From assembly GCF_053078305.1 (NCBI RefSeq), contig NZ_CP166879.1: 64,000 bases of DNA; one strand, written 5' to 3'. The notes under the pieces were generated by a model. The model made no database searches and was not told the DNA's origin. It saw nothing but the letters and a program-made list of their open reading frames with translations. Made by a program: the position numbers and the translations under genes. The stretch's first letter is position 1; each line of letters opens with the position of its first letter. Shown piece by piece: positions 5,211-61,191 of the stretch.

Positions 5211-6593
5211 TTATCCCACCAGCATCCAGGTCGCCGGAACTGAGGCAATTAACAGCATGCCAATCAGCACCATTTCCTGACGGTTCAGTACATTATCATG
5301 TGTATGCGTTTTGCGCGCATACAGGAAAACCAGCAGCCCCGGTGCATACAGAACAACGGATAACAGCAAGTGCATTGGACCAGAGGCGTACAATAACCAT
5401 AAGCCATAAATGCAGGCACCGACACCTACCGCTTTATGCAGTGGACGGGTTGCGATTTTCAGCAAGAACGCGCCGACCAGGAAATAGGGCACCAGAATCA
5501 TTTCTGAGGCGATGGTCAGCAACGTGTTGTAATCGGAACCGGTCAGCCAGATGAGTACCAGACAAATTTGCACGCAGATGTTGGTCAACCACAGTGAGGC
5601 GGATGGCGCAGCTTGTGCGTTCTGGCGCGCAAAAATGCGTGGGAATGCTTTATGAGTGGCAGCCAGGAACGGAACTTCTGCCGCCATGATGGTCCAGCTT
5701 AAGTACGCGCCGCAAACGGAAACGATCAAACCGGCAGCGATGATGATTTCGCCCCATGGTCCCATCATTTCCACCATCAGACCGGCCATTGATGGGTTAC
5801 GAATTTCAGCCAGTTCAGGACGTGCCACCACACCCAGCGAAAGCAGCGTTACCAGCAAGTAAACGCCCAGAGCGGAGAGAACCGCCAGTAGTGTCGCTTT
5901 GCCAACATCACGTTTATTACGCGCACGCGCAGAAACAACCACGGCACCTTCCACACCAATGAAAACCCACAGGGTGATCAGCATGGTGTTTTTCACCTGT
6001 TCCCAAACAGGTACGCCAAGTGCAAGTCCGGTGAAGTCGAGCTTGAAGGTATCCAGTTTGAACATCATCATCGCCAGCACAACAAACAGACCCAGCGGCA
6101 ACAATTTTGCCAGTGTCGCCACCAGGTTAATGCTGGCAGCGGTTTGCACCCCGCGCAGGATCAAAAAGTGAACAATCCACAATAAAGCCGATGCACCGAC
6201 TATCGATTGCCAGGTATTACCATCGCCAAACAGGCGCAATTCCGGCGTGTCCGTAAAAAAGCTTAACGCGGAAAAAACGATCACCAGATAGGAGACGTTG
6301 GCGATGACTGCACACAGCCAGTATCCCCATGCGGAACAAAAGCCGATTAGCTCGCCAAACCCTTCGCGGGCATAGGTAAAGATACCGCCGTCAAGTTCGG
6401 GACGAATGCGCGTGAGGATCAGCATGGCAAAGGCCAGCAATAAAATGCCAGCGCCAGTAATACCCCAGCCGATGAGCAGTGCTGCCGGGCTGGCAACTGC
6501 CGCCATATTTTGCGGCAGACTGAAAACACCCGCGCCCAGCATTGAGCTTAATACCAGCGCGGTGAGTGCGCTCAGTCCCAGTTTCTTTTCCAT
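5211..6593 (-). CDS. ydgI: Amino-acid antiporter YdgI/ArcD family (APC transporter)
   Basis: 460-aa polytopic membrane ORF; conserved position between folM and ydgH. Confidence 0.85.
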   Translation of the reverse strand: MEKKLGLSALTALVLSSMLGAGVFSLPQNMAAVASPAALLIGWGITGAGILLLAFAMLILTRIRPELDGGIFTYAREGFGELIGFCSAWGYWLCAVIANVSYLVIVFSALSFFTDTPELRLFGDGNTWQSIVGASALLWIVHFLILRGVQTAASINLVATLAKLLPLGLFVVLAMMMFKLDTFKLDFTGLALGVPVWEQVKNTMLITLWVFIGVEGAVVVSARARNKRDVGKATLLAVLSALGVYLLVTLLSLGVVARPELAEIRNPSMAGLMVEMMGPWGEIIIAAGLIVSVCGAYLSWTIMAAEVPFLAATHKAFPRIFARQNAQAAPSASLWLTNICVQICLVLIWLTGSDYNTLLTIASEMILVPYFLVGAFLLKIATRPLHKAVGVGACIYGLWLLYASGPMHLLLSVVLYAPGLLVFLYARKTHTHDNVLNRQEMVLIGMLLIASVPATWMLVG

Positions 6594-6725
6594 CGATATC
6601 CAGTGATTAAAACGTGATAAGAAGAATAAATATTAGGGCAAAACGCATAAAAATGGAGTTTGCCACTGAAGCGCGGGATTTTACGAAGAGATGTGTCTGC
6701 ATGCAATGGTCGTAGGGAAATTTGT

Positions 6726-38631: not shown

Positions 38632-38794
38632 AATGGCAGCCTCTTGGTTGAGTATTAATAACTCACCACCAAGGTTTTCCACGACCATAAGGGTGGTGAG
38701 ACGTACAGGGGTGGAAATACCGGTCAACCAAGAATCCGGCCAGCCTTGCGGCTGCCCTGCACGCCCCACCATAATCTGAATGTGGCTGTGCATT

Positions 38795-38823
38795 ACGCAT
38801 AAAAAAACCGCCTGAGCGCGGTT
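38795..38823 (-). terminator. Weak intrinsic terminator between the DicF-like RNA and the Rha-like gene
   Basis: Minus-strand AACCGCGCTCAGGCGG followed by TTTTTTT; stem only 4-5 bp. Confidence 0.3.
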
Positions 38824-39119
38824 ATGCGCTTGATTGAATTCCGGGTTTCCACGCCCGGCACCCGCTTTATGAGGTGCAGATGAACTATAATTCCACCCGT
38901 TCTGGTTTTCAATAGCTACATTCAACATTTTCTCTTACCCTTCATCACCGAAGTGAACTTTGTTGATGCAGTGCCTGGTGCCTCCAGGTGACGTTAACCA
39001 GTTAACAATTAACGCCGGAATACAGAAGTATGCCCGTTACGCCCCGTAAAAGACCACTTTACGGTTTTAACTGTTCCGCGTGCGCTTAGCCGCATTCACC
39101 GCATCACAAAATTCACTTT

Positions 39120-39177
39120 AAAAAGGGTGGCAGAGCAGTCACGGAGTAGAACTGATGCCACCAAAGACTACACATGG
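39120..39177 (-). ncRNA. dicF: DicF-like small RNA
   Basis: Minus strand reads ...GGTGGCATCAGTTCTACTCCGTGACTGCTCTGCCACCCTTTTT, near-identical to the 3' two-thirds of K-12 DicF including its terminator hairpin; 5' segment diverges. Confidence 0.55.
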
Positions 39178-46094: not shown

Positions 46095-46385
46095 CCTGGC
46101 CTGAAGCATTAACAACGGTAGGAATTGCGATGGCGGTGGCGCTGGTGGTGTATTCGATTTGCCGCTGGGGATAAAAACGGTTTGCGGGAAAAGGAGAGTT
46201 AAGTAGAATTGCAGCGGGTGCTTGAGGCTATCTGTCTCAGGCATGAACACCAAAAGGCAGATAGAGAAAAGCCCCAGTTAACATTACGCGTCCGGCAAGA
46301 CGCTTAACATTAATCTGAGGCTCAATCTGTGAACGGCAAATCTAGGTTAGCCTCTTACGCGCCGAAAGGCAAGGAGAAGCAGGCT

Positions 46386-46541
46386 ATGAAGCAGCAAAAG
46401 GCGATGTTAGTCGCCCTGATCGTCATCTGTATTACCGTCATTGTGACGGCACTGGTAACGAGGAAAGACCTCTGCGAGGTACGAATCCGAACCGGCCAGA
46501 CGGAGGTCGCTGTCTTCACAGCTTACGAACCTGAGGAGTAA
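46386..46541 (+). CDS. hokD: Hok/Gef-family type I toxin (HokD-like)
   Basis: Translation MKQQKAMLVALIVICITVIVTALVTRKDLCEVRIRTGQTEVAVFTAYEPEE; upstream in-frame extension corresponds to the overlapping mok frame. Confidence 0.85.
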   Translation: MKQQKAMLVALIVICITVIVTALVTRKDLCEVRIRTGQTEVAVFTAYEPEE

Positions 46542-50658: not shown

Positions 50659-51717
50659 ATGCTTAATACTGTAAAAATATCCAGTTGTGAGTTAATCAAC
50701 GCCGACTGCCTGGCATTTATCCGGTCGTTACCCGAAAATTCTGTTGACCTGATAGTCACGGACCCGCCGTACTTTAAAGTGAAGCCTGAGGGCTGGGATA
50801 ACCAGTGGAAGGGCGACGATGATTACCTGAAGTGGCTGGACCAGTGTCTTGCGCAGTTCTGGCGGGTGCTGAAACCTGCCGGAAGTCTTTACCTGTTCTG
50901 TGGCCATCGCCTGGCATCTGATATCGAAATCATGATGCGTGAACGCTTCAGTGTGCTGAACCATATTATCTGGGCAAAGCCGTCCGGACGCTGGAACGGG
51001 TGCAACAAGGAAAGCCTGAGGGCGTATTTCCCCGCCACAGAGCGCATTCTGTTCGCGGAACATTATCAGGGGCCGTATCGTCCGAAAGATGCCGGGTATG
51101 AGGCGAAGGGCAGGGCACTGAAACAGCATGTGATGGCCCCGCTGATTGCTTACTTTCGTGATGCGCGTGCTGCCCTGGGGATAACGGCAAAACAGATTGT
51201 GGATGCCACAGGAAAGAAAAACATGGTGTCGCACTGGTTCAGTGCCAGTCAGTGGCAGCTACCGAACGAAAGCGATTATCTGAAATTACAGGCGCTGTTT
51301 GCCCGGGTGGCAGAAGAGAAGCATCAGCGCGGTGAACTGGAAAAGCCCCACCACCAGCTGCTGGAGACGTATACTTCACTGAACCGGCAGTATGCGGAAC
51401 TGCAGAGTGAATATAAGCATCTGCGGCGGTATTTTGGCGTGACGGCGCAGGTGCCGTACACCGATGTGTGGACGCATAAACCGGTGCAGTACTATCCCGG
51501 GAAACATCCGTGCGAAAAACCGGCAGAAATGCTGCAGCAGATAATCAGCGCGAGCAGTCGTCCGGGGGACCTGGTTGCAGATTTTTTCATGGGGTCGGGT
51601 TCGACAGTCAAAGCCGCGATGGCGCTGGGGCGTCGTGCAACTGGCGTTGAGCTGGAGACTGAACGTTTTGAGCAGACGGTCAGGGAAGTACAGGATTTAG
51701 CCAGTCAGAACGGATGA
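50659..51717 (+). CDS. DNA methyltransferase (N6-adenine/N4-cytosine, DPPY type)
   Basis: N-terminal LIVTDPPYF and C-terminal FFMGSGST motifs; 352 aa with a long insert between them. Confidence 0.8.
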   Translation: MLNTVKISSCELINADCLAFIRSLPENSVDLIVTDPPYFKVKPEGWDNQWKGDDDYLKWLDQCLAQFWRVLKPAGSLYLFCGHRLASDIEIMMRERFSVLNHIIWAKPSGRWNGCNKESLRAYFPATERILFAEHYQGPYRPKDAGYEAKGRALKQHVMAPLIAYFRDARAALGITAKQIVDATGKKNMVSHWFSASQWQLPNESDYLKLQALFARVAEEKHQRGELEKPHHQLLETYTSLNRQYAELQSEYKHLRRYFGVTAQVPYTDVWTHKPVQYYPGKHPCEKPAEMLQQIISASSRPGDLVADFFMGSGSTVKAAMALGRRATGVELETERFEQTVREVQDLASQNG

Positions 51718-51757: not shown

Positions 51758-51833
51758 GGCCCTTTAGCTCAGTGGTGAGAGCGAGCGACTCATAATCGCC
51801 AGGTCGCTGGTTCAAATCCAGCAAGGGCCACCA
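51758..51833 (+). tRNA. tRNA with CAU anticodon, ileX-like (tRNA-Ile2 lysidine type)
   Basis: Cloverleaf GGCCCTTTAGCTCAGTGGTGAGAGC...ACTCATAATCG...GGTTCAAATCC...AAGGGCCACCA; close to E. coli ileX. Confidence 0.75.
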
Positions 51834-51842
51834 TATCACATA

Positions 51843-51919
51843 CCGCCATTAGCTCATCGGGACAGAGCGTCAGCCTTCGAAGCTGGTTGCGCGGGGTTCG
51901 AGTCCTCGATGGCGGTCCA
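51843..51919 (+). tRNA. tRNA-Arg (anticodon TCG)
   Basis: Acceptor stem CCGCCAT/ATGGCGG, anticodon loop CTTCGAA, T-loop GGTTCGAGTCC, 3' CCA. Confidence 0.7.
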
Positions 51920-51932
51920 TTATCGGTATTCA

Positions 51933-52009
51933 GCGTTGTTAGCTCAGCCGGACAGAGCAATTGCCTTCTAAGCAATCGGTCACTGGTTCGAATCCAGTAC
52001 AACGCGCCA
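51933..52009 (+). tRNA. tRNA-Arg (anticodon TCT)
   Basis: Acceptor stem GCGTTGT/ACAACGC, anticodon loop CTTCTAA, T-loop GGTTCGAATCC, 3' CCA. Confidence 0.75.
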
Positions 52010-52178
52010 TACTTATTTTTCTGGCTCGCTTTTGCGGGCCTTTTTTGTATCCGCGCCACGCCCGGCGCATATCAACCACAGAGCCTTTCGGGGGTGAGCT
52101 TACGGAGTGGTCAGTGTGACTTTCTCTGTGGGCAGATCGCTCCCGGGCGTTGGCTCACCCACCCAAAGGAACGTCACG

Positions 52179-52610
52179 ATGTTTGGTATTTTCAAAAAGA
52201 AAACCCGCAGAGCAGCAACGGAAATTAAAAAGTTTGAGAAACGCGATCTGGCACAGGCGGTTATTAATGCTGCCTACCTGGTAGCCTATGCAGATGGTGA
52301 ATGTGAGGCTTCAGAGAAAGCGAAGATCGAACAGGTATTACGTAACCAGCCTGCGTTGTCCGCGTTTACGTCAGAAATTAATGCCATCAGTGCCACGATC
52401 ACAGGTCAGCTTGACACCAACTTTAAAATTGGTCGTCGAGCGGCGTTGCGTGAAATTGAAGATGTGAAACACGATACGCGTGAAGCGGAAGATGTGCTGG
52501 ATGTGGCGGTGGCTATTGCTGAAGCAGATGGTGAAATTGAGCCGGAAGAGCGTAAGGTTCTGGAAGAGATTGCAGGTGTTCTTGGCCTGCGACTGGAGAA
52601 CCACCTGTGA
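52179..52610 (+). CDS. TerB-domain protein
   Basis: Translation MFGIFKKKTRRAATEIKKFEKRDLAQAVINAAYLVAYADGECEASEKAKIEQVL...AIAEADGEIEPEERKVLEEIAGVLGL; AAAGGA SD upstream. Confidence 0.6.
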   Translation: MFGIFKKKTRRAATEIKKFEKRDLAQAVINAAYLVAYADGECEASEKAKIEQVLRNQPALSAFTSEINAISATITGQLDTNFKIGRRAALREIEDVKHDTREAEDVLDVAVAIAEADGEIEPEERKVLEEIAGVLGLRLENHL

Positions 52611-52771
52611 CGGTAAAACTGCGTCTGGCCGCTGTGGCACTCCTGCTGTTTCTGGTGGTGATGGTGGATTTCACCAGCAGGATCATGTCGGTGCTGGCGG
52701 ATGGAGTGCTGGTGGTCGGTATTGTGGTGGTGCTTTTTCCTTTGGTGAAAAAGGACATGCCAGGTAGTTAG
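52607..52771 (+). CDS. Possible small hydrophobic protein translationally coupled to the TerB-like gene
   Basis: GTG overlapping the upstream TGA (GTGA), GGAGA 7 nt upstream; 54 codons, two hydrophobic stretches; below the track length cutoff. Confidence 0.3.
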   Translation: MTVKLRLAAVALLLFLVVMVDFTSRIMSVLADGVLVVGIVVVLFPLVKKDMPGS

Positions 52772-53019
52772 CCGGGTATCAGTCATGCCCCGAAAATTTT
52801 AAATGTCTCACAATTCAGACGGTTGACAGTTGTCTGTTTTGCGGGGAGTTTGTTAAAAGAAACTGGCATGGTGAATCCCCCTGAGCGGAGGGGCGACTGG
52901 TGCATTAGGTGTTATCTTTGATACCTAGGAAAGTGAACGCGCGGGTTTGGTTGCACCGGGCTGAACTCACCGGGAGGCACCCGGCATCATGCGCATGATG
53001 ATACAGATACGCGGCTTTA

Positions 53020-53046
53020 GCCCCTCTCCGGAGGGGCTTTTATATG
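53020..53046 (+). terminator. Intrinsic terminator
   Basis: GCCCCTC-TCCG-GAGGGGC hairpin followed by TTTTATATG. Confidence 0.6.
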
Positions 53047-53072
53047 AATTTTGTAAGATATGAGTAAACTAA

Positions 53073-53408
53073 TTATGGACACTGTTGTTTTAGTCCGTAA
53101 GGGCATATTTGCAGAATGCAATGATTATTAAAGCATTCTTTCAATACGTTATCTGAATTTGCAGGACATTCCTGGCTGTTTTTGATTAAATCCCAGAATC
53201 TTTTATTGAATGGTACAACGTTGTAAATGGTTACAGGTAGCACTTTGTTATTAAGTACGATACCTGTGTGAGTCAACGTAAATATACTTTCAGGAGGTAA
53301 GAAAACATCCGATTGATACCAGATTATTAATTTTATTTTACTCCATATGGCTGAAAAAGATATTCCGCATGATGGCTGGATAACTGTATCAATCACAATC
53401 CACTTCAT
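53073..53408 (-). CDS. Hypothetical Cys-rich protein on an AT-rich antisense island
   Basis: 111-aa ORF with AAGGAGG SD 5 nt upstream of the ATG; seven Cys, five in the C-terminal third; region visibly AT-rich. Confidence 0.55.
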
Positions 53409-53661
53409 TTAGCCTCCTTATTTATGCTGTGCTGGTGATGTTCTGAAAAGTATAAATGATAATTTTGAATGTAAACCATAGAGCAGAATTATTTTTCTGA
53501 TGTTGTTTATTTAAATACAGGTTTTTTATATCCCGTCTTGTAGTTTATCCATGCATACCTGCTTTATGATGAGGTTTTCATTTAAGGTATGGTTTTGTGT
53601 TTTTTTCTGTATTTCATGTCAGGTATTTTAAAGAATTGTTTTTAATATGGTGGAAAGAACC

Positions 53662-55629
53662 ATGGCATTTAAACACTACGATGTGGTCAGGGCGGCGTCG
53701 CCGTCAGACCTTGCGGAGCGACTGACTCAAAAACTGAAGGAGGGGTGGCAGCCATTTGGCAGTCCTGTCGCCATCACGCCTTATACCCTGATGCAGGCCA
53801 TTGCGGCGGAAGGTGATGTCACCACACCTGTGCTGGTGAAGCCGTCGGATGGAGAAGGCACAGTTATCAGCACCACCAGCGAACCGGAGTATTACTTTGT
53901 TGTTGTTCTGGCGGGGCAGTCAAACAGCATGGCATATGGTGAAGGCCTTCCGCTGCCGGAGACATATGACCGTCCGGACCCGCGTATTAAGCAGCTGGCG
54001 CGCCGCAGTACGGTGACACCGGGCGGTGCCGCCTGTAAGTATAACGACATTATTCCGGCGGACCATTGTCTGCATGATGTGCAGGACATGAGCCGTCTTA
54101 ACCATCCGAAAGCGAACCTGTCAAAGGGGCAGTACGGAACCGTGGGGCAGGGGCTGCATATCGGCAAAAAACTGCTGCCGTTTATACCGGCGAATGCGGG
54201 CATTCTGCTGGTTCCGTGCTGCCGTGGTGCTTCGGCATTCACAACGGGTGCAGACGGCACATACAGCGAATCAGCCGGTGCATCGGAAAATTCACTGCGC
54301 TGGGGTGTGGGTAAGCCGCTGTATCAGGATTTGGTGAGCCGGACTAAAGCCGCACTGGCGAAGAACCCGAAAAACCGTCTGCTTGCGGTGGTGTGGATGC
54401 AGGGAGAAGGTGATGCGGCAGTGGGGACGCATGCGCAGCATCCGGGGCTGTTTAGTGCGATGGTGAATCAGTTCAGAACGGAGCTTGCCGGTCTGGCATC
54501 ACAGAGCACAGGAGGCAGCGCATCAGCGGTACCGTGGATTTGCGGGGACACAACGTATTTCTGGAAGCAGCGTCATGCGGAAGGGTATGCATCAGTATAC
54601 GGAGGGTATAAGGGTAAGGAGTCGCAGAACATTTTCTTTGTACCGTTAATGACGGATGAGAATGGTGCGAATGTGCAGACCAATGACCCGGCAGAAGACC
54701 CGGACCTGGAAGCCGTCGGTTATTACGGTTCAAAGTGGCGTAATGACCAGAAGACCTGGACATCTGTGGACAGGGCAAGCCATTTCAGTTCATGGGCACG
54801 CCGTGGGATTATTTCCGACCGTCTGGCAACGGCGATTCTGGTGCATGCCGGGAGAACTGCTGAATTCATTACCGGAAAACAGCCTGATACGGTGAAGCCC
54901 ACCGGACCTTCCGGTGAAGGCCCGGAGAGAGAGCCGGAAGCCCCGGTCAGTAACCGAACCCTGATGAGTCTGCTGGCGTCCGGTGAAGACCTGGCATCAC
55001 AGGGCTGGCGCTATTATCACAAACCGGCGAGCGGAGACAATGTTGATAAAAACATCGCTGAGGCTGTGGTCAGTGATGAGGGTGCCACCGGTGGTAAGGC
55101 CCTGCAACTGAACAAACCGGAAAGCCACATCTGGTTTCTGGAGCATGATGCCGCCGGGCAGGGGGCAGAGTTGCTGAAGAAAGGCGGACGTGTGAGCGTA
55201 CGGTTTAAGGTGCCGGGCTCACTGGTGCCGAATCAGTTTGCCCTGGGTATTTACTGGCAGTTGTCGTCCCTGCCGGAGGGAGTGACGCTGGCAGAGGAAG
55301 GCAACGACATGCTGATGTCCTTCTTCCTGCAGACGGATGCGACGAACCTGAACGCGATGTACCACAAGAAGCAGAATGCGAAGCTGGATACGTTCGGGGT
55401 CTTTGATAACGGATGGCACACACTGGCTTTTGAGTTTGCCGGAAACAACAGCATTCAGGTGACGCCGGTACTGGATGAGAAACGGGGTACACCGTTCACA
55501 CTGGTGAAATCTCCGGCATCAGGGGCGGCGGACAAACTGCAACTGACAGGCATATCAAAGGCGGCGACATATACGTTGCTGATTGACAGTGTGAAGGTGG
55601 AAGTGAACAACGCGGACGCCGCGGCATGA
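53662..55629 (+). CDS. Prophage O-acetyl sialic acid esterase NanS-p-like protein (DUF1737 + SGNH/DUF303)
   Basis: About 655-aa ORF; N-terminal MAFKHYDVVRAASPSDLAERL... segment and VVVLAGQSNSMAYGEG esterase motif; located after the tRNAs and before the lysis genes as in Stx phages. Start could be the ATG at 53647. Confidence 0.7.
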   Translation: MAFKHYDVVRAASPSDLAERLTQKLKEGWQPFGSPVAITPYTLMQAIAAEGDVTTPVLVKPSDGEGTVISTTSEPEYYFVVVLAGQSNSMAYGEGLPLPETYDRPDPRIKQLARRSTVTPGGAACKYNDIIPADHCLHDVQDMSRLNHPKANLSKGQYGTVGQGLHIGKKLLPFIPANAGILLVPCCRGASAFTTGADGTYSESAGASENSLRWGVGKPLYQDLVSRTKAALAKNPKNRLLAVVWMQGEGDAAVGTHAQHPGLFSAMVNQFRTELAGLASQSTGGSASAVPWICGDTTYFWKQRHAEGYASVYGGYKGKESQNIFFVPLMTDENGANVQTNDPAEDPDLEAVGYYGSKWRNDQKTWTSVDRASHFSSWARRGIISDRLATAILVHAGRTAEFITGKQPDTVKPTGPSGEGPEREPEAPVSNRTLMSLLASGEDLASQGWRYYHKPASGDNVDKNIAEAVVSDEGATGGKALQLNKPESHIWFLEHDAAGQGAELLKKGGRVSVRFKVPGSLVPNQFALGIYWQLSSLPEGVTLAEEGNDMLMSFFLQTDATNLNAMYHKKQNAKLDTFGVFDNGWHTLAFEFAGNNSIQVTPVLDEKRGTPFTLVKSPASGAADKLQLTGISKAATYTLLIDSVKVEVNNADAAA

Positions 55630-58579: not shown

Positions 58580-59515
58580 ATGAAATGTGTACTGTATTCC
58601 GGTGACTGTCTTGATGTTATGCCTTCATTACTACCGGGAAGTGTTGACCTGGTTTTATGTGACCCGCCGTATGGAACCATTAAAGGGCTTACACTCCGTA
58701 CATGGGATAAGAGTACGACAGCATGGGACGATGCCTTAAATCCTGAAGATATTTTCACACAGTGCGAACGACTGCTGAGGGTGGGCGGTGTGCTGGTCAT
58801 GTTCAGCCAGGAGCCGCATACAAGCACGATGATTACTCTGGCGGATAAAAACCTGCCGTTTTTATATCGTATGGTGTGGAAGAAGGAGCATTTCCCCAAC
58901 CCGCTTTCAGTAAAAAAAGCACCTGTATCTTTATTCGAGGATATCGTTGTTTTCCGGAAAAAATATGACAGTGAGAAAAACCACCCGCTGAGGGAGTACG
59001 CCCGAAATATCCTTTCTTTCATTGGCCACAGGACAGACAAGGAAGTTAACAAAACACTGGGGCACTGTCGGGCAGAGCATTTTTTTCGCGTGAACACAGT
59101 CCAGTTTTCCCTCTGCTCACAGGATACGTACAACGAGTTAATTAAACGCTTTGGTATCGACCGTATGCCGGGTTTCATGACATATGAAGAAATGTGCAAA
59201 GTGAATTCCGGTTACGGCACTGTGGTTTTTAATCTCCCTCAGGGGAAAAAATACCGCGCAAATATTCTGGAGTACGCGCGGGAGCGGGAGCGATGGCATC
59301 CGACCCAGAAGCCAGTTGCATTACTGGAAGAGCTGATTCAGACGTACAGCAACCCTGGCGACAGGGTACTGGATTTTACTATGGGGAGTGGTTCAACAGG
59401 TGTTGCATGTATCCGGACGGGGAGACGGTTTACCGGAATAGAAAAGGATGACCGGTATTTCGCTGTTGCAAAAAAACGTCTGGAAAAAGAAAACAGTGAA
59501 ATGGTGGTGATATGA
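58580..59515 (+). CDS. DNA methyltransferase (DPPY type), second copy, inserted between endolysin and Rz
   Basis: N-terminal LVLCDPPYG and C-terminal FTMGSGSTG motifs; stop overlaps the Rz start. Confidence 0.8.
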
Positions 59516-59979
59516 ACCGTGTTCTGTGTGTGGTGATTATTGTCCTGCTGGTGGCCTGTGGTGCGCTTAGTCTGGGGCTGAATCATTACCGCGATAACGC
59601 CATCACCTACAAAGCGCAGCGCGATAAAAAAGCCAGAGAGCTGGAGCTGGCAAACGCAACCATTACTGATATGCAGCAGCGCCAGCGCGATGTTGCTGCG
59701 CTCGATGCTAAATACTCGAGGGAATTAGCCGATGCGAGAGCTGAAAATGAAACTCTGCGTGCTGATGTTGCCGCTGGTCGTAAGCGCCTGCGGGTTAAAG
59801 CCACCTGTCCAGGCTCCGTGCGTGAAGCCCCCACCACCTCCGGCGTGGATAATGCAACCGGCCCCCGACTGGCAGACACCGCTGAACGGGATTATTTCAT
59901 CCTCAGAGAACGGTTGATGACAATGCAGAAGCAGCTGGAAGGGGCGAAGGAATATATCCGCACTCAGTGTATTAACTAG
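59512..59979 (+). CDS. Spanin inner-membrane subunit Rz
   Basis: 155-aa ORF with N-terminal TM helix and coiled-coil periplasmic domain; contains Rz1 in the +1 frame. Confidence 0.75.
59732..59917 (+). CDS. Spanin outer-membrane lipoprotein Rz1 (embedded in Rz)
   Basis: Lipobox LVVSAC followed by the proline-rich [27 protein letters not shown] segment, as in lambda Rz1. Confidence 0.65.
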
Positions 59980-60227: not shown

Positions 60228-60469
60228 GCGACCTTATTATCCATGCGCGGTATTGTCGCCGTATTCCTGCATTAACAGAGACCGCAGCCCGACAGGGAGA
60301 CTCCTCTGCGCGAGTGTGCGGGGATAATCAAAAACGATACACACCGGGGTTTACCGCGTTAACGGAGCGCGGCGTTGTCCCCTCATGGTCGCTGGTCCGG
60401 TGCGATGGTGGAAGAAACTGGATTTTGTTGCAACTGATAATCATTATCATTTTCTCGGGTCCTTTCCGG

Positions 60470-60681: not shown

Positions 60682-61191
60682 GTGGCTACGCAGACTGAAG
60701 TTGCCAGGCATTTAAGTCTGACCGATCGCCAGCTTCGCAGATTGCAGAAATTGCCGGGTGCCCCGATATCGAATAAGCGAGGGCAACTGGATCTGGATGC
60801 CTGGCGCGATTTTTACATATCGTATCTGAGAAGAAGTAAAAACGATGTGCCTGATGGCGATAGCGAAGACGACTATGAGGAGAAATTGCTTATTGCCAGA
60901 TGGGAACTGACAGCAGAACAGGCTGTTACACAGCAGTTAAAAAATGAGGTGTCAAAAGGAAAACTTATTGACACCGGGTTCTGTATTTTTGCCCTCAGCA
61001 AGCTGGCAATGGCGTTATCCAGTACGCTTGATTCCATCCCTTTATCCATGCAGCGACAGTTTCCTGATTTAACACCGCGCCATCTTGACCATCTGAAAAC
61101 CCTTATTGCGAAGGGGGCAAATCAGTGTGCGCGGGCGGGGGATAAATTACCGGATTTACTCGATGAATATATCAGAGCAACAACTGAATAA
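60682..61191 (+). CDS. Terminase small subunit (lambda Nu1-like)
   Basis: GTG start with GAGGTGAGGA SD; C-terminal half aligns with lambda Nu1. Confidence 0.8.
   Translation: MATQTEVARHLSLTDRQLRRLQKLPGAPISNKRGQLDLDAWRDFYISYLRRSKNDVPDGDSEDDYEEKLLIARWELTAEQAVTQQLKNEVSKGKLIDTGFCIFALSKLAMALSSTLDSIPLSMQRQFPDLTPRHLDHLKTLIAKGANQCARAGDKLPDLLDEYIRATTE

Follow-up and report, generated by a model that had tools for sequence, protein, structure and literature searches.

A stretch of unusually low GC content in the late region of a lambdoid prophage, carrying a short reading frame that runs against all of its neighbors, raises the question of what that reading frame is and what it might do for the lysogen. 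The locus lies within a 64,000-nt stretch of contig NZ_CP166879.1 (NCBI RefSeq assembly GCF_053078305.1); this entire stretch is referred to here as the window. An earlier description made from the DNA letters only (the sequence-only reading) had taken the locus for an independently acquired moron with its own promoter, encoding a Cys-rich product of no recognizable family. The analysis reported here points to a different identity for the product and, on the evidence of homology, makes it very probable that the reading frame is a functional iraL-type RssB anti-adaptor gene, carried as a lysogenic-conversion cassette on the prophage.

Base composition and coding character

The reading frame occupies positions 53073–53408 on the minus strand and encodes 111 amino acids, from an ATG start to a stop codon at 53073–53075. 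The Shine-Dalgarno sequence AAGGAGG described for it is present at 53413–53419 (minus strand), 4 nt 5′ of the ATG. Its orientation opposite to the late operon is likewise borne out, as the plus strand carries, in order, the Q antiterminator, a hypothetical gene, a DNA methyltransferase (50659–51717), three tRNAs (51758–52009), TerB, DUF3927, nanS-p, DUF1378, DUF826, holin and lysozyme (neighbor identities are from the RefSeq annotation of the 98.7%-identical locus FHI_NMBU_10 and from ARAGORN). By composition count the GC fraction over 53050–53646 is 0.315, the lowest of any 597-bp stretch in the 64-kb window (mean 0.497, sd 0.039), so that the description of the stretch as AT-rich stands. Within it the reading frame has a GC fraction of 0.342 (GC3 0.33) and the intergenic part 0.286, compared with 0.51 in the left flank (52107–53049) and 0.56 on the nanS-p side. 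The number of cysteines in the product, given earlier as seven, is six (positions 14, 81, 92, 97, 102 and 110).

A reading frame that is short, AT-rich and without a Pfam hit could in principle be a chance frame in the regulatory spacer of nanS-p or in the 3′ region of the STnc100 sRNA gene. The ratio dN/dS is, however, 0.26 in comparison with E. coli CFT073 and 0.18 in comparison with K-12, and this holds in the N-terminal domain and in the tail; values of 0.18–0.26 argue for a protein-coding gene under purifying selection and not a chance frame. Furthermore, when 1.84 billion representative proteins are searched in full with HMMER, 84 relatives are found at E ≤ 1e-3, distributed across the Enterobacterales and many of them full length, and the family includes a homolog of solved structure and a characterized near-ortholog. 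The homology and selection data refute a chance frame, to which we assign a negligible probability.

Identity of the gene

The product matches the NCBIfam model NF007393 ("anti-adapter protein IraM") with 161.1 bits, where the curated cutoff is 121 (E 9e-48), its residues 1–109 aligning to positions 1–112 of the 114 in the model, and its match to phrog_4407 spans the full length. It is identical to IraL of CFT073 at 100 of 111 residues (90%; coding DNA 314/336, or 93.5%) and to IraM of K-12 (b1160) at 67 of 107 (63%), and the IraM chain of PDB 8TWD (8twd_A) is matched by sequence at E 7e-33. Megablast of positions 52780–53660 finds matches in 2623 of 5426 complete E. coli genomes, and the feature is always annotated "anti-adapter protein IraM"; an identical 403-bp sequence comprising gene and promoter occurs in STEC strain 2013C-3181, where the product is WP_021574136.1 under the same name. 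Judged by these matches the reading frame is a full-length known gene of the IraM/IraL/RssC family of RssB anti-adaptors, is already present in RefSeq and is no orphan. The sequence-only reading, which recognized no family, is thus superseded on this point, since a whole member of the IraM/IraL family is labeled as such by RefSeq in roughly one complete E. coli genome in four; it had also considered that the reading frame might prove to be a fragment of a known gene, and a known gene was found, but a whole one.

The gene together with its core promoter is present in 1445 of the 5426 genomes. By identity to the window sequence, 1419 of these fall at 90–95% (the CFT073 type) and 26 at 95% or above, the latter made up of 8 at ≥99% and 18 at 95–99%; with 26 genomes against 1419, the window allele is a rare form of a gene that is itself common and known. 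The iraL matches of the 2014 survey all share at least 95% nucleotide identity (Hryckowian et al., 2014, PMC4045071), and the window allele, at 93.5% to CFT073 iraL, falls below that mark yet resembles iraL much more than iraM.

An hmmscan against Pfam-A, with the threshold relaxed to E ≤ 10, returned no family for the window protein or any of 14 relatives, unlike a precomputed protein-database table in which PF11183.15 (PmrD) is listed for every homolog. The discrepancy may reflect a difference in library version.

Predicted fold and RssB contacts

Homology search and structure prediction, which had been proposed as checks in the sequence-only reading, were both run, and alongside the NF007393 match they yielded an IraM fold. 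The AF2 model built on 34 diverse homologs has a mean pLDDT of 86.6, with values of 89–97 over residues 1–80, and Foldseek superimposes its N-terminal domain on 8twd_A with a TM score of 0.92 and an rmsd of 0.9 Å over 77 columns. In the model, residues 1–78 form a PmrD-like antiparallel beta-barrel plus helix (TM 0.73 to PmrD 4HN7, at a sequence identity to PmrD of about 15%), which reproduces the statement in PMC10844676 that IraM has a PmrD-like fold. The same paper places the IraM–RssB contacts of its crystal structure in three clusters (I4, I6, W22, K26 and I42; T13, C14, F18, W30 and L75; I61, Y62, H63 and I64). At 11 of these 14 contact residues the window protein is identical; the changes are the conservative T13S, L75I and I64V, plus H63N, N being the residue found in most of the family.

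The fold also bears on a different reading, in which the product would be a PmrD-like connector with a target other than RssB among the response regulators (PmrA, say, or a regulator of phage or host origin) and no effect on RpoS. IraM and PmrD are alike in their small size and in binding response regulators at the receiver domain (PMC10844676), and such a connector would be in keeping with the PmrD fold of the N-terminal domain (4HN7 at TM 0.73, with 2JSO and 2RQX also matching), with the precomputed Pfam tables that assign PF11183 to all homologs, and with the divergence of IraM-family members in how they contact RssB. What makes it very improbable is that an identity of about 15% to PmrD compares with 90% to IraL and 63% to IraM, both of which have been shown to bind RssB, that 11 of 14 RssB-contact residues are retained, and that the NF007393 score lies well above its cutoff.

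Promoter and regulatory inputs

The 5′ end of the CFT073 iraL mRNA has been mapped by 5′ RACE and reported as a 32-nt sequence, ACATCACCAGCAAGGCATAAACAAGGAAACCA (PMC4045071). This sequence occurs exactly in CFT073, and its aligned counterpart in the window is ACATCACCAGCACAGCATAAATAAGGAGGCTA. By homology to the mapped start, a sigma-70 promoter is predicted at 53441–53475 on the minus strand, with transcription starting at about 53441, a −10 element TATACT at 53449–53454, a −35 element TTTACA at 53470–53475 and a spacer of 15 nt; the motif at the start site (ACATCACC) and both hexamers are identical in the window and in CFT073. An independent promoter had been claimed for 53409–53640, and the alignment of the CFT073 start to 53441 with conserved −10 and −35 elements supports that claim by homology. 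The predicted leader is 33 nt long and unstructured on folding. A generic sigma-70 scan gave two minus-strand sites, one within the reading frame and one at 53488–53515, no more than in shuffled sequences; it missed the promoter that homology supports because of the 15-nt spacer.

Upstream of the predicted start the window and CFT073 are about 95% identical, with one 7-bp indel. The heptamer AATAAAC occurs once in the window, at 53505–53511, about 65 nt upstream of the predicted start, and is tandemly duplicated in CFT073, ATCC 25922 and FHI_NMBU_10; the indel falls inside the −100 to +33 fragment that is sufficient for complementation in CFT073. At the position of the window Shine-Dalgarno sequence AAGGAGG, CFT073 and ATCC 25922 have the weaker AAGGAAA.

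Inputs to this promoter can be proposed for the window allele only by transfer and by motif search. No PhoP box of the form (T/G)GTTTA-N5-(T/G)GTTTA was found in 53409–53661 with up to two mismatches (in the whole window the same scan gave 19 matches against about 16 expected), and PhoP input to the window gene is considered unlikely. The best intergenic match to a Fur box, 11/19, is no better than those in shuffled sequences. CFT073 iraL mRNA is higher in a fur mutant (PMC7157518), and since no Fur box surpasses the shuffled controls this effect is probably indirect. CFT073 iraL mRNA also rises by 1.6 log2 when the temperature is shifted from 23 to 37 °C (PMC12890032), and K-12 iraM is reported, in the title of Battesti et al. 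(2012, PMC3347191), to be regulated by H-NS. Because the upstream region has a GC content of only 28.6%, it is reasonable to suppose that the gene is under thermoregulated, H-NS-type silencing, and an input of the temperature or H-NS type to the cassette is likely.

A near-consensus Fur box, GATAATCATTATCATTTTC, is found elsewhere in the window, at 60436–60454; no other site in the window matches as well as its 17/19. The surrounding ~700 bp, between an Rz-like lysis gene (59512–59979) and the small terminase subunit gene (60682–61191), hold no convincing open reading frame, and the box might mark an iron-regulated moron or sRNA.

In the closest full-locus relative, FHI_NMBU_10, iraL is annotated as a frameshifted pseudogene (locus positions 6294–6628), with a run of T4 where the window has T5 at about 53340–53345. 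Either genuine decay or a sequencing error in the homopolymer could account for the frameshift; given that this copy is frameshifted, iraL may be dispensable in some hosts.

Such a history is the essence of a further reading, in which the gene is intact but silent cargo: an AT-rich cassette silenced by H-NS-type proteins and drifting toward a pseudogene, with no present function. To the frameshift in the near-identical locus may be added the composition of the promoter region (28.6% GC), the reported H-NS regulation of K-12 iraM, and the rarity of the allele (8 genomes at ≥99% and 18 at 95–99% identity, out of 5426). Yet dN/dS values of 0.18–0.26 indicate purifying selection; the frame, the start codon and the promoter elements are intact, and the Shine-Dalgarno sequence is stronger than that of CFT073; and CFT073 iraL, whose upstream region is 95% identical, is active in log phase and gains 1.6 log2 at 37 °C. 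Silent cargo is accordingly held to be improbable, somewhat less so than a connector for another response regulator, and a functional iraL-type anti-adaptor remains the preferred reading.

The cassette and its slot in the prophage

The boundaries of the island follow from comparison with phages that lack iraL. In PPwrbA_EH2201 an unrelated 223-bp spacer of normal GC, located between the sRNA terminator and the nanS-p ATG, replaces the 0.6-kb island; the tRNAs (95.6% nucleotide identity to the window), an STnc100-like sRNA (79%) and nanS-p (74%) are kept on either side, and homology between the two sequences ends right after the terminator T-run and restarts at the nanS-p ATG. These breakpoints place the whole AT-rich cassette at 53047–53661 (GC 0.315, no strand assigned). 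Phage genomes with iraL in the same place include vB_EcoS-640R1. With a promoter of its own (by homology), deviant GC and presence or absence between collinear phages, the cassette is a moron by the usual criteria. The earlier claim of independent acquisition gains in this way from the cassette's absence in PPwrbA_EH2201 between kept flanks and from its GC content, the lowest of the window.

To the left of the cassette, and outside it, the STnc100 sRNA gene converges on iraL (52837–53049, plus strand; Rfam RF02076, 140.9 bits against a gathering score of 47, model positions 1–206 of 206). Its intrinsic terminator hairpin lies at 53019–53038 on the plus strand and has an 8-bp stem (z −2.5), with the sequence AGCCCCTC-TCCG-GAGGGGCT followed by the T-run TTTTATAT. 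Seen from iraL, which is transcribed toward it from the opposite side, this plus-strand hairpin comes 35 nt after the stop codon; a minus-strand transcript forms the stem as well, but with UAAAGCC behind it instead of a U-run, so that the hairpin would be at best a weak terminator for iraL.

To the right lies the next late-operon gene, a nanS-p-type SASA/DUF1737 esterase (53662–55629, plus strand; phrog_143; "SASA family carbohydrate esterase" in the PGAP annotation of FHI_NMBU_10 and of another relative). Its start is most likely 53662 (MAFKHY...), the start used by PGAP and in PPwrbA_EH2201, and not the 53647 of the mechanically called open reading frame (MVERTMAFKHY...); the divergent intergenic region between iraL and nanS-p therefore extends from 53409 to 53661 (28.6% GC, no strand assigned) and includes both the iraL promoter and the conserved sequence upstream of it. 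A second GC-rich hairpin had been described on this side. The corresponding pseudo-palindrome, at about 53685–53710, is part of the nanS-p coding sequence, and its folding does not surpass that of shuffled sequence (z +0.44), so that of the two hairpins said to flank the island only the left one, the STnc100 terminator, is retained.

STnc100 occurs without iraL in Stx and other lambdoid phages (see also PMC12370729), and in Stx2 phages it lies 75 nt downstream of stx2B (PMC12370729). Because STnc100 follows stx2B, the stx slot is the one upstream of STnc100, here filled by TerB and DUF3927; iraL sits in a second slot, downstream of STnc100 and one past the stx position. The TerB and DUF3927 genes (52179–52771, plus strand) take up the interval between the tRNAs and STnc100, which is the stx position in Stx phages. 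The TerB-family gene (phrog_632, "tellurite resistance"; PGAP start at about 52179) overlaps by 4 nt the DUF3927/TciB-like gene (52607–52771, plus strand; phrog_1470), which encodes a hydrophobic product of 54 aa.

The first of the phage tRNAs (51758–51833, plus strand) is called tRNA-Met (CAT) by ARAGORN and tRNA-Ile in its PGAP homolog. An ileZ-type tRNA-Ile, with a lysidine-modified CAT anticodon, is typical of Stx-like phages. Other small RNA genes in the window that score above their Rfam gathering thresholds are, on the minus strand, the C4 antisense RNA (38689–38776), an isrK-like RNA (38801–38877) and DicF (39125–39176) and, on the plus strand, the sok antitoxin RNA (46216–46391).

Proposed function in the lysogen

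IraL raises the level and the stability of sigma-S in log phase, as shown by immunoblot and half-life measurements, and binds RssB in two-hybrid and pull-down experiments (PMC4045071), and IraM inhibits RssB and thereby stabilizes RpoS (PMC10844676). By homology, iraL in the lysogen would be transcribed from its own sigma-70 promoter (start at about 53441), against a silent late operon, and a consensus Shine-Dalgarno site would direct translation of its mRNA. Residues 1–78 of the product, the PmrD-like beta-barrel at the N terminus, would bind the adaptor RssB, which once bound would no longer deliver sigma-S (RpoS) to the ClpXP protease; RpoS would accumulate and the general stress response would be raised, as with CFT073 IraL in exponential phase. 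We infer RssB binding and RpoS stabilization by the window allele, as well as its expression in the host strain, from these characterized relatives. The mode of binding is a separate matter: IraL binds only the N-domain of RssB and IraM binds both domains (PMC4045071), and because the two bind differently neither mode can be transferred to the window allele.

The lysogenic-conversion function itself, in which higher RpoS brings higher stress tolerance, is known, as is the gene; the remaining interest lies in the regulatory effects of the antisense placement and in a conserved four-cysteine tail. With regard to the former, iraL transcripts that read through would be antisense to STnc100, and interference by late transcription after induction can be envisaged; both are speculative. 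In a specific form of this idea, antisense placement could make iraL a lysogeny-only gene, in that Q-antiterminated late transcription continuing past the STnc100 terminator would shut iraL off by collision. If this is true, RpoS stabilization would be withdrawn on prophage induction.

The cysteine-rich tail

In an alignment of 34 family sequences with a mean column identity of 29%, only M1, W72, C81, C97 and C102 are invariant, and C92, P82, P103, W3, P12 and W30 are conserved in at least 90%. The tail motif reads C-P-x(9-11)-C-x(4-5)-C-x4-C-P; the sixth cysteine of the window protein, C110, is peculiar to its allele. The named relatives, all called IraM, come from Citrobacter, Salmonella, Enterobacter, Kosakonia, Cronobacter, Intestinirhabdus and Pantoea. 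Full-length members from all of these except Salmonella go beyond the Escherichia, Shigella and Salmonella range of the 2014 paper. Some relatives carry long C-terminal extensions, for example a 144-aa form in Cronobacter muytjensii. A modest new point is the invariance or near-invariance, in the aligned sequences, of four C-terminal cysteines in a family that spans the Enterobacterales.

In the structural work on IraM, residues 79–107 were cut off because the full-length protein was unstable, the tail was called less conserved and flexible, and neither cysteine nor zinc is mentioned (PMC10844676); a literature search for IraM with zinc or cysteine found nothing about IraM cysteines. The AF2 prediction for this region depends on the alignment supplied: with 15 close homologs, residues 80–111 have pLDDT below 50, and with 34 diverse homologs the tail reaches a moderate pLDDT of about 69–75. 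Since the cysteines are conserved and the confidence of the tail rises with the diverse alignment, a role in metal binding or redox chemistry is a fair hypothesis, namely that the anti-adaptor's stability or activity could be set by its tail, acting as a Zn(Cys)4 or redox-sensitive module. Such a module, if real, would also explain the instability of purified full-length IraM, and the four-cysteine conservation, absent from the discussion in PMC10844676, thus leads to a hypothesis on how an anti-adaptor is stabilized or senses its surroundings. A functional Zn(Cys)4 or redox module and, separately, a lysogeny-only iraL brought about by antisense placement are offered tentatively, as possibilities that are well short of probable.

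Comparison with known anti-adaptor systems

The most distant comparison is with PmrD (4HN7, 2JSO and 2RQX), which shares the beta-barrel and helix of residues 1–78 at about 15% identity and differs in having no Cys-rich tail and in its target, PmrA rather than RssB. Salmonella RssC, described as IraL/IraM-like (PMC4045071), and the proteins called IraM in Citrobacter, Enterobacter, Cronobacter, Kosakonia and Pantoea are closer; with lengths of 105–125 aa they can be aligned end to end with the window protein at 25–54% identity, and W72, C81, C97 and C102 are invariant among them and C92 nearly so.

K-12 IraM (YcgW), encoded beside the e14 element, belongs to the same NF007393 family and shares the PmrD-like fold and the four C-terminal cysteines. 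The two loci differ in their surroundings and in their control. K-12 iraM lies at the icdC/e14 border and the window gene in a lambdoid late region; K-12 iraM has no recognizable Shine-Dalgarno sequence, in contrast to AAGGAGG in the window; and low Mg2+ induces K-12 iraM by way of PhoP/PhoQ (PMC10844676; PMC11825808), whereas no PhoP box was found in 53409–53661. The DNA upstream of K-12 iraM cannot be aligned with the window, and because only the coding part is alignable the promoter and PhoP data from K-12 are not transferable.

The closest characterized system is IraL of uropathogenic E. coli CFT073 (c1429; PMC4045071). It too has 111 aa, and it shares with the window protein a C-terminal ...KQQxP extension that K-12 IraM lacks; the residue differences (window first) are A20V, V35A, V51M, R70T, D73N, A83T, S85T, K90N, H96R, I98T and C110S. 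By alignment the promoter, transcription start and leader are the same, and identity across the entire 0.6-kb AT-rich cassette is about 95%. Outside the protein, the window has AAGGAGG where CFT073 has AAGGAAA, one copy of AATAAAC instead of two, and a full-length nanS-p downstream, which is truncated in CFT073. STEC-associated prophages carry a rare, divergent iraL allele whose ribosome-binding site is stronger. In CFT073, the prophage at potB has Q, tRNA Ile/Arg/Arg, DUF3927, iraL on the minus strand, DUF1737/nanS-p and holin, the same slot and orientation as in the window, and the iraL locus of the CFT073 "potB island" can accordingly be recognized as a standard lambdoid late-region slot, located between the STnc100 sRNA and nanS-p.
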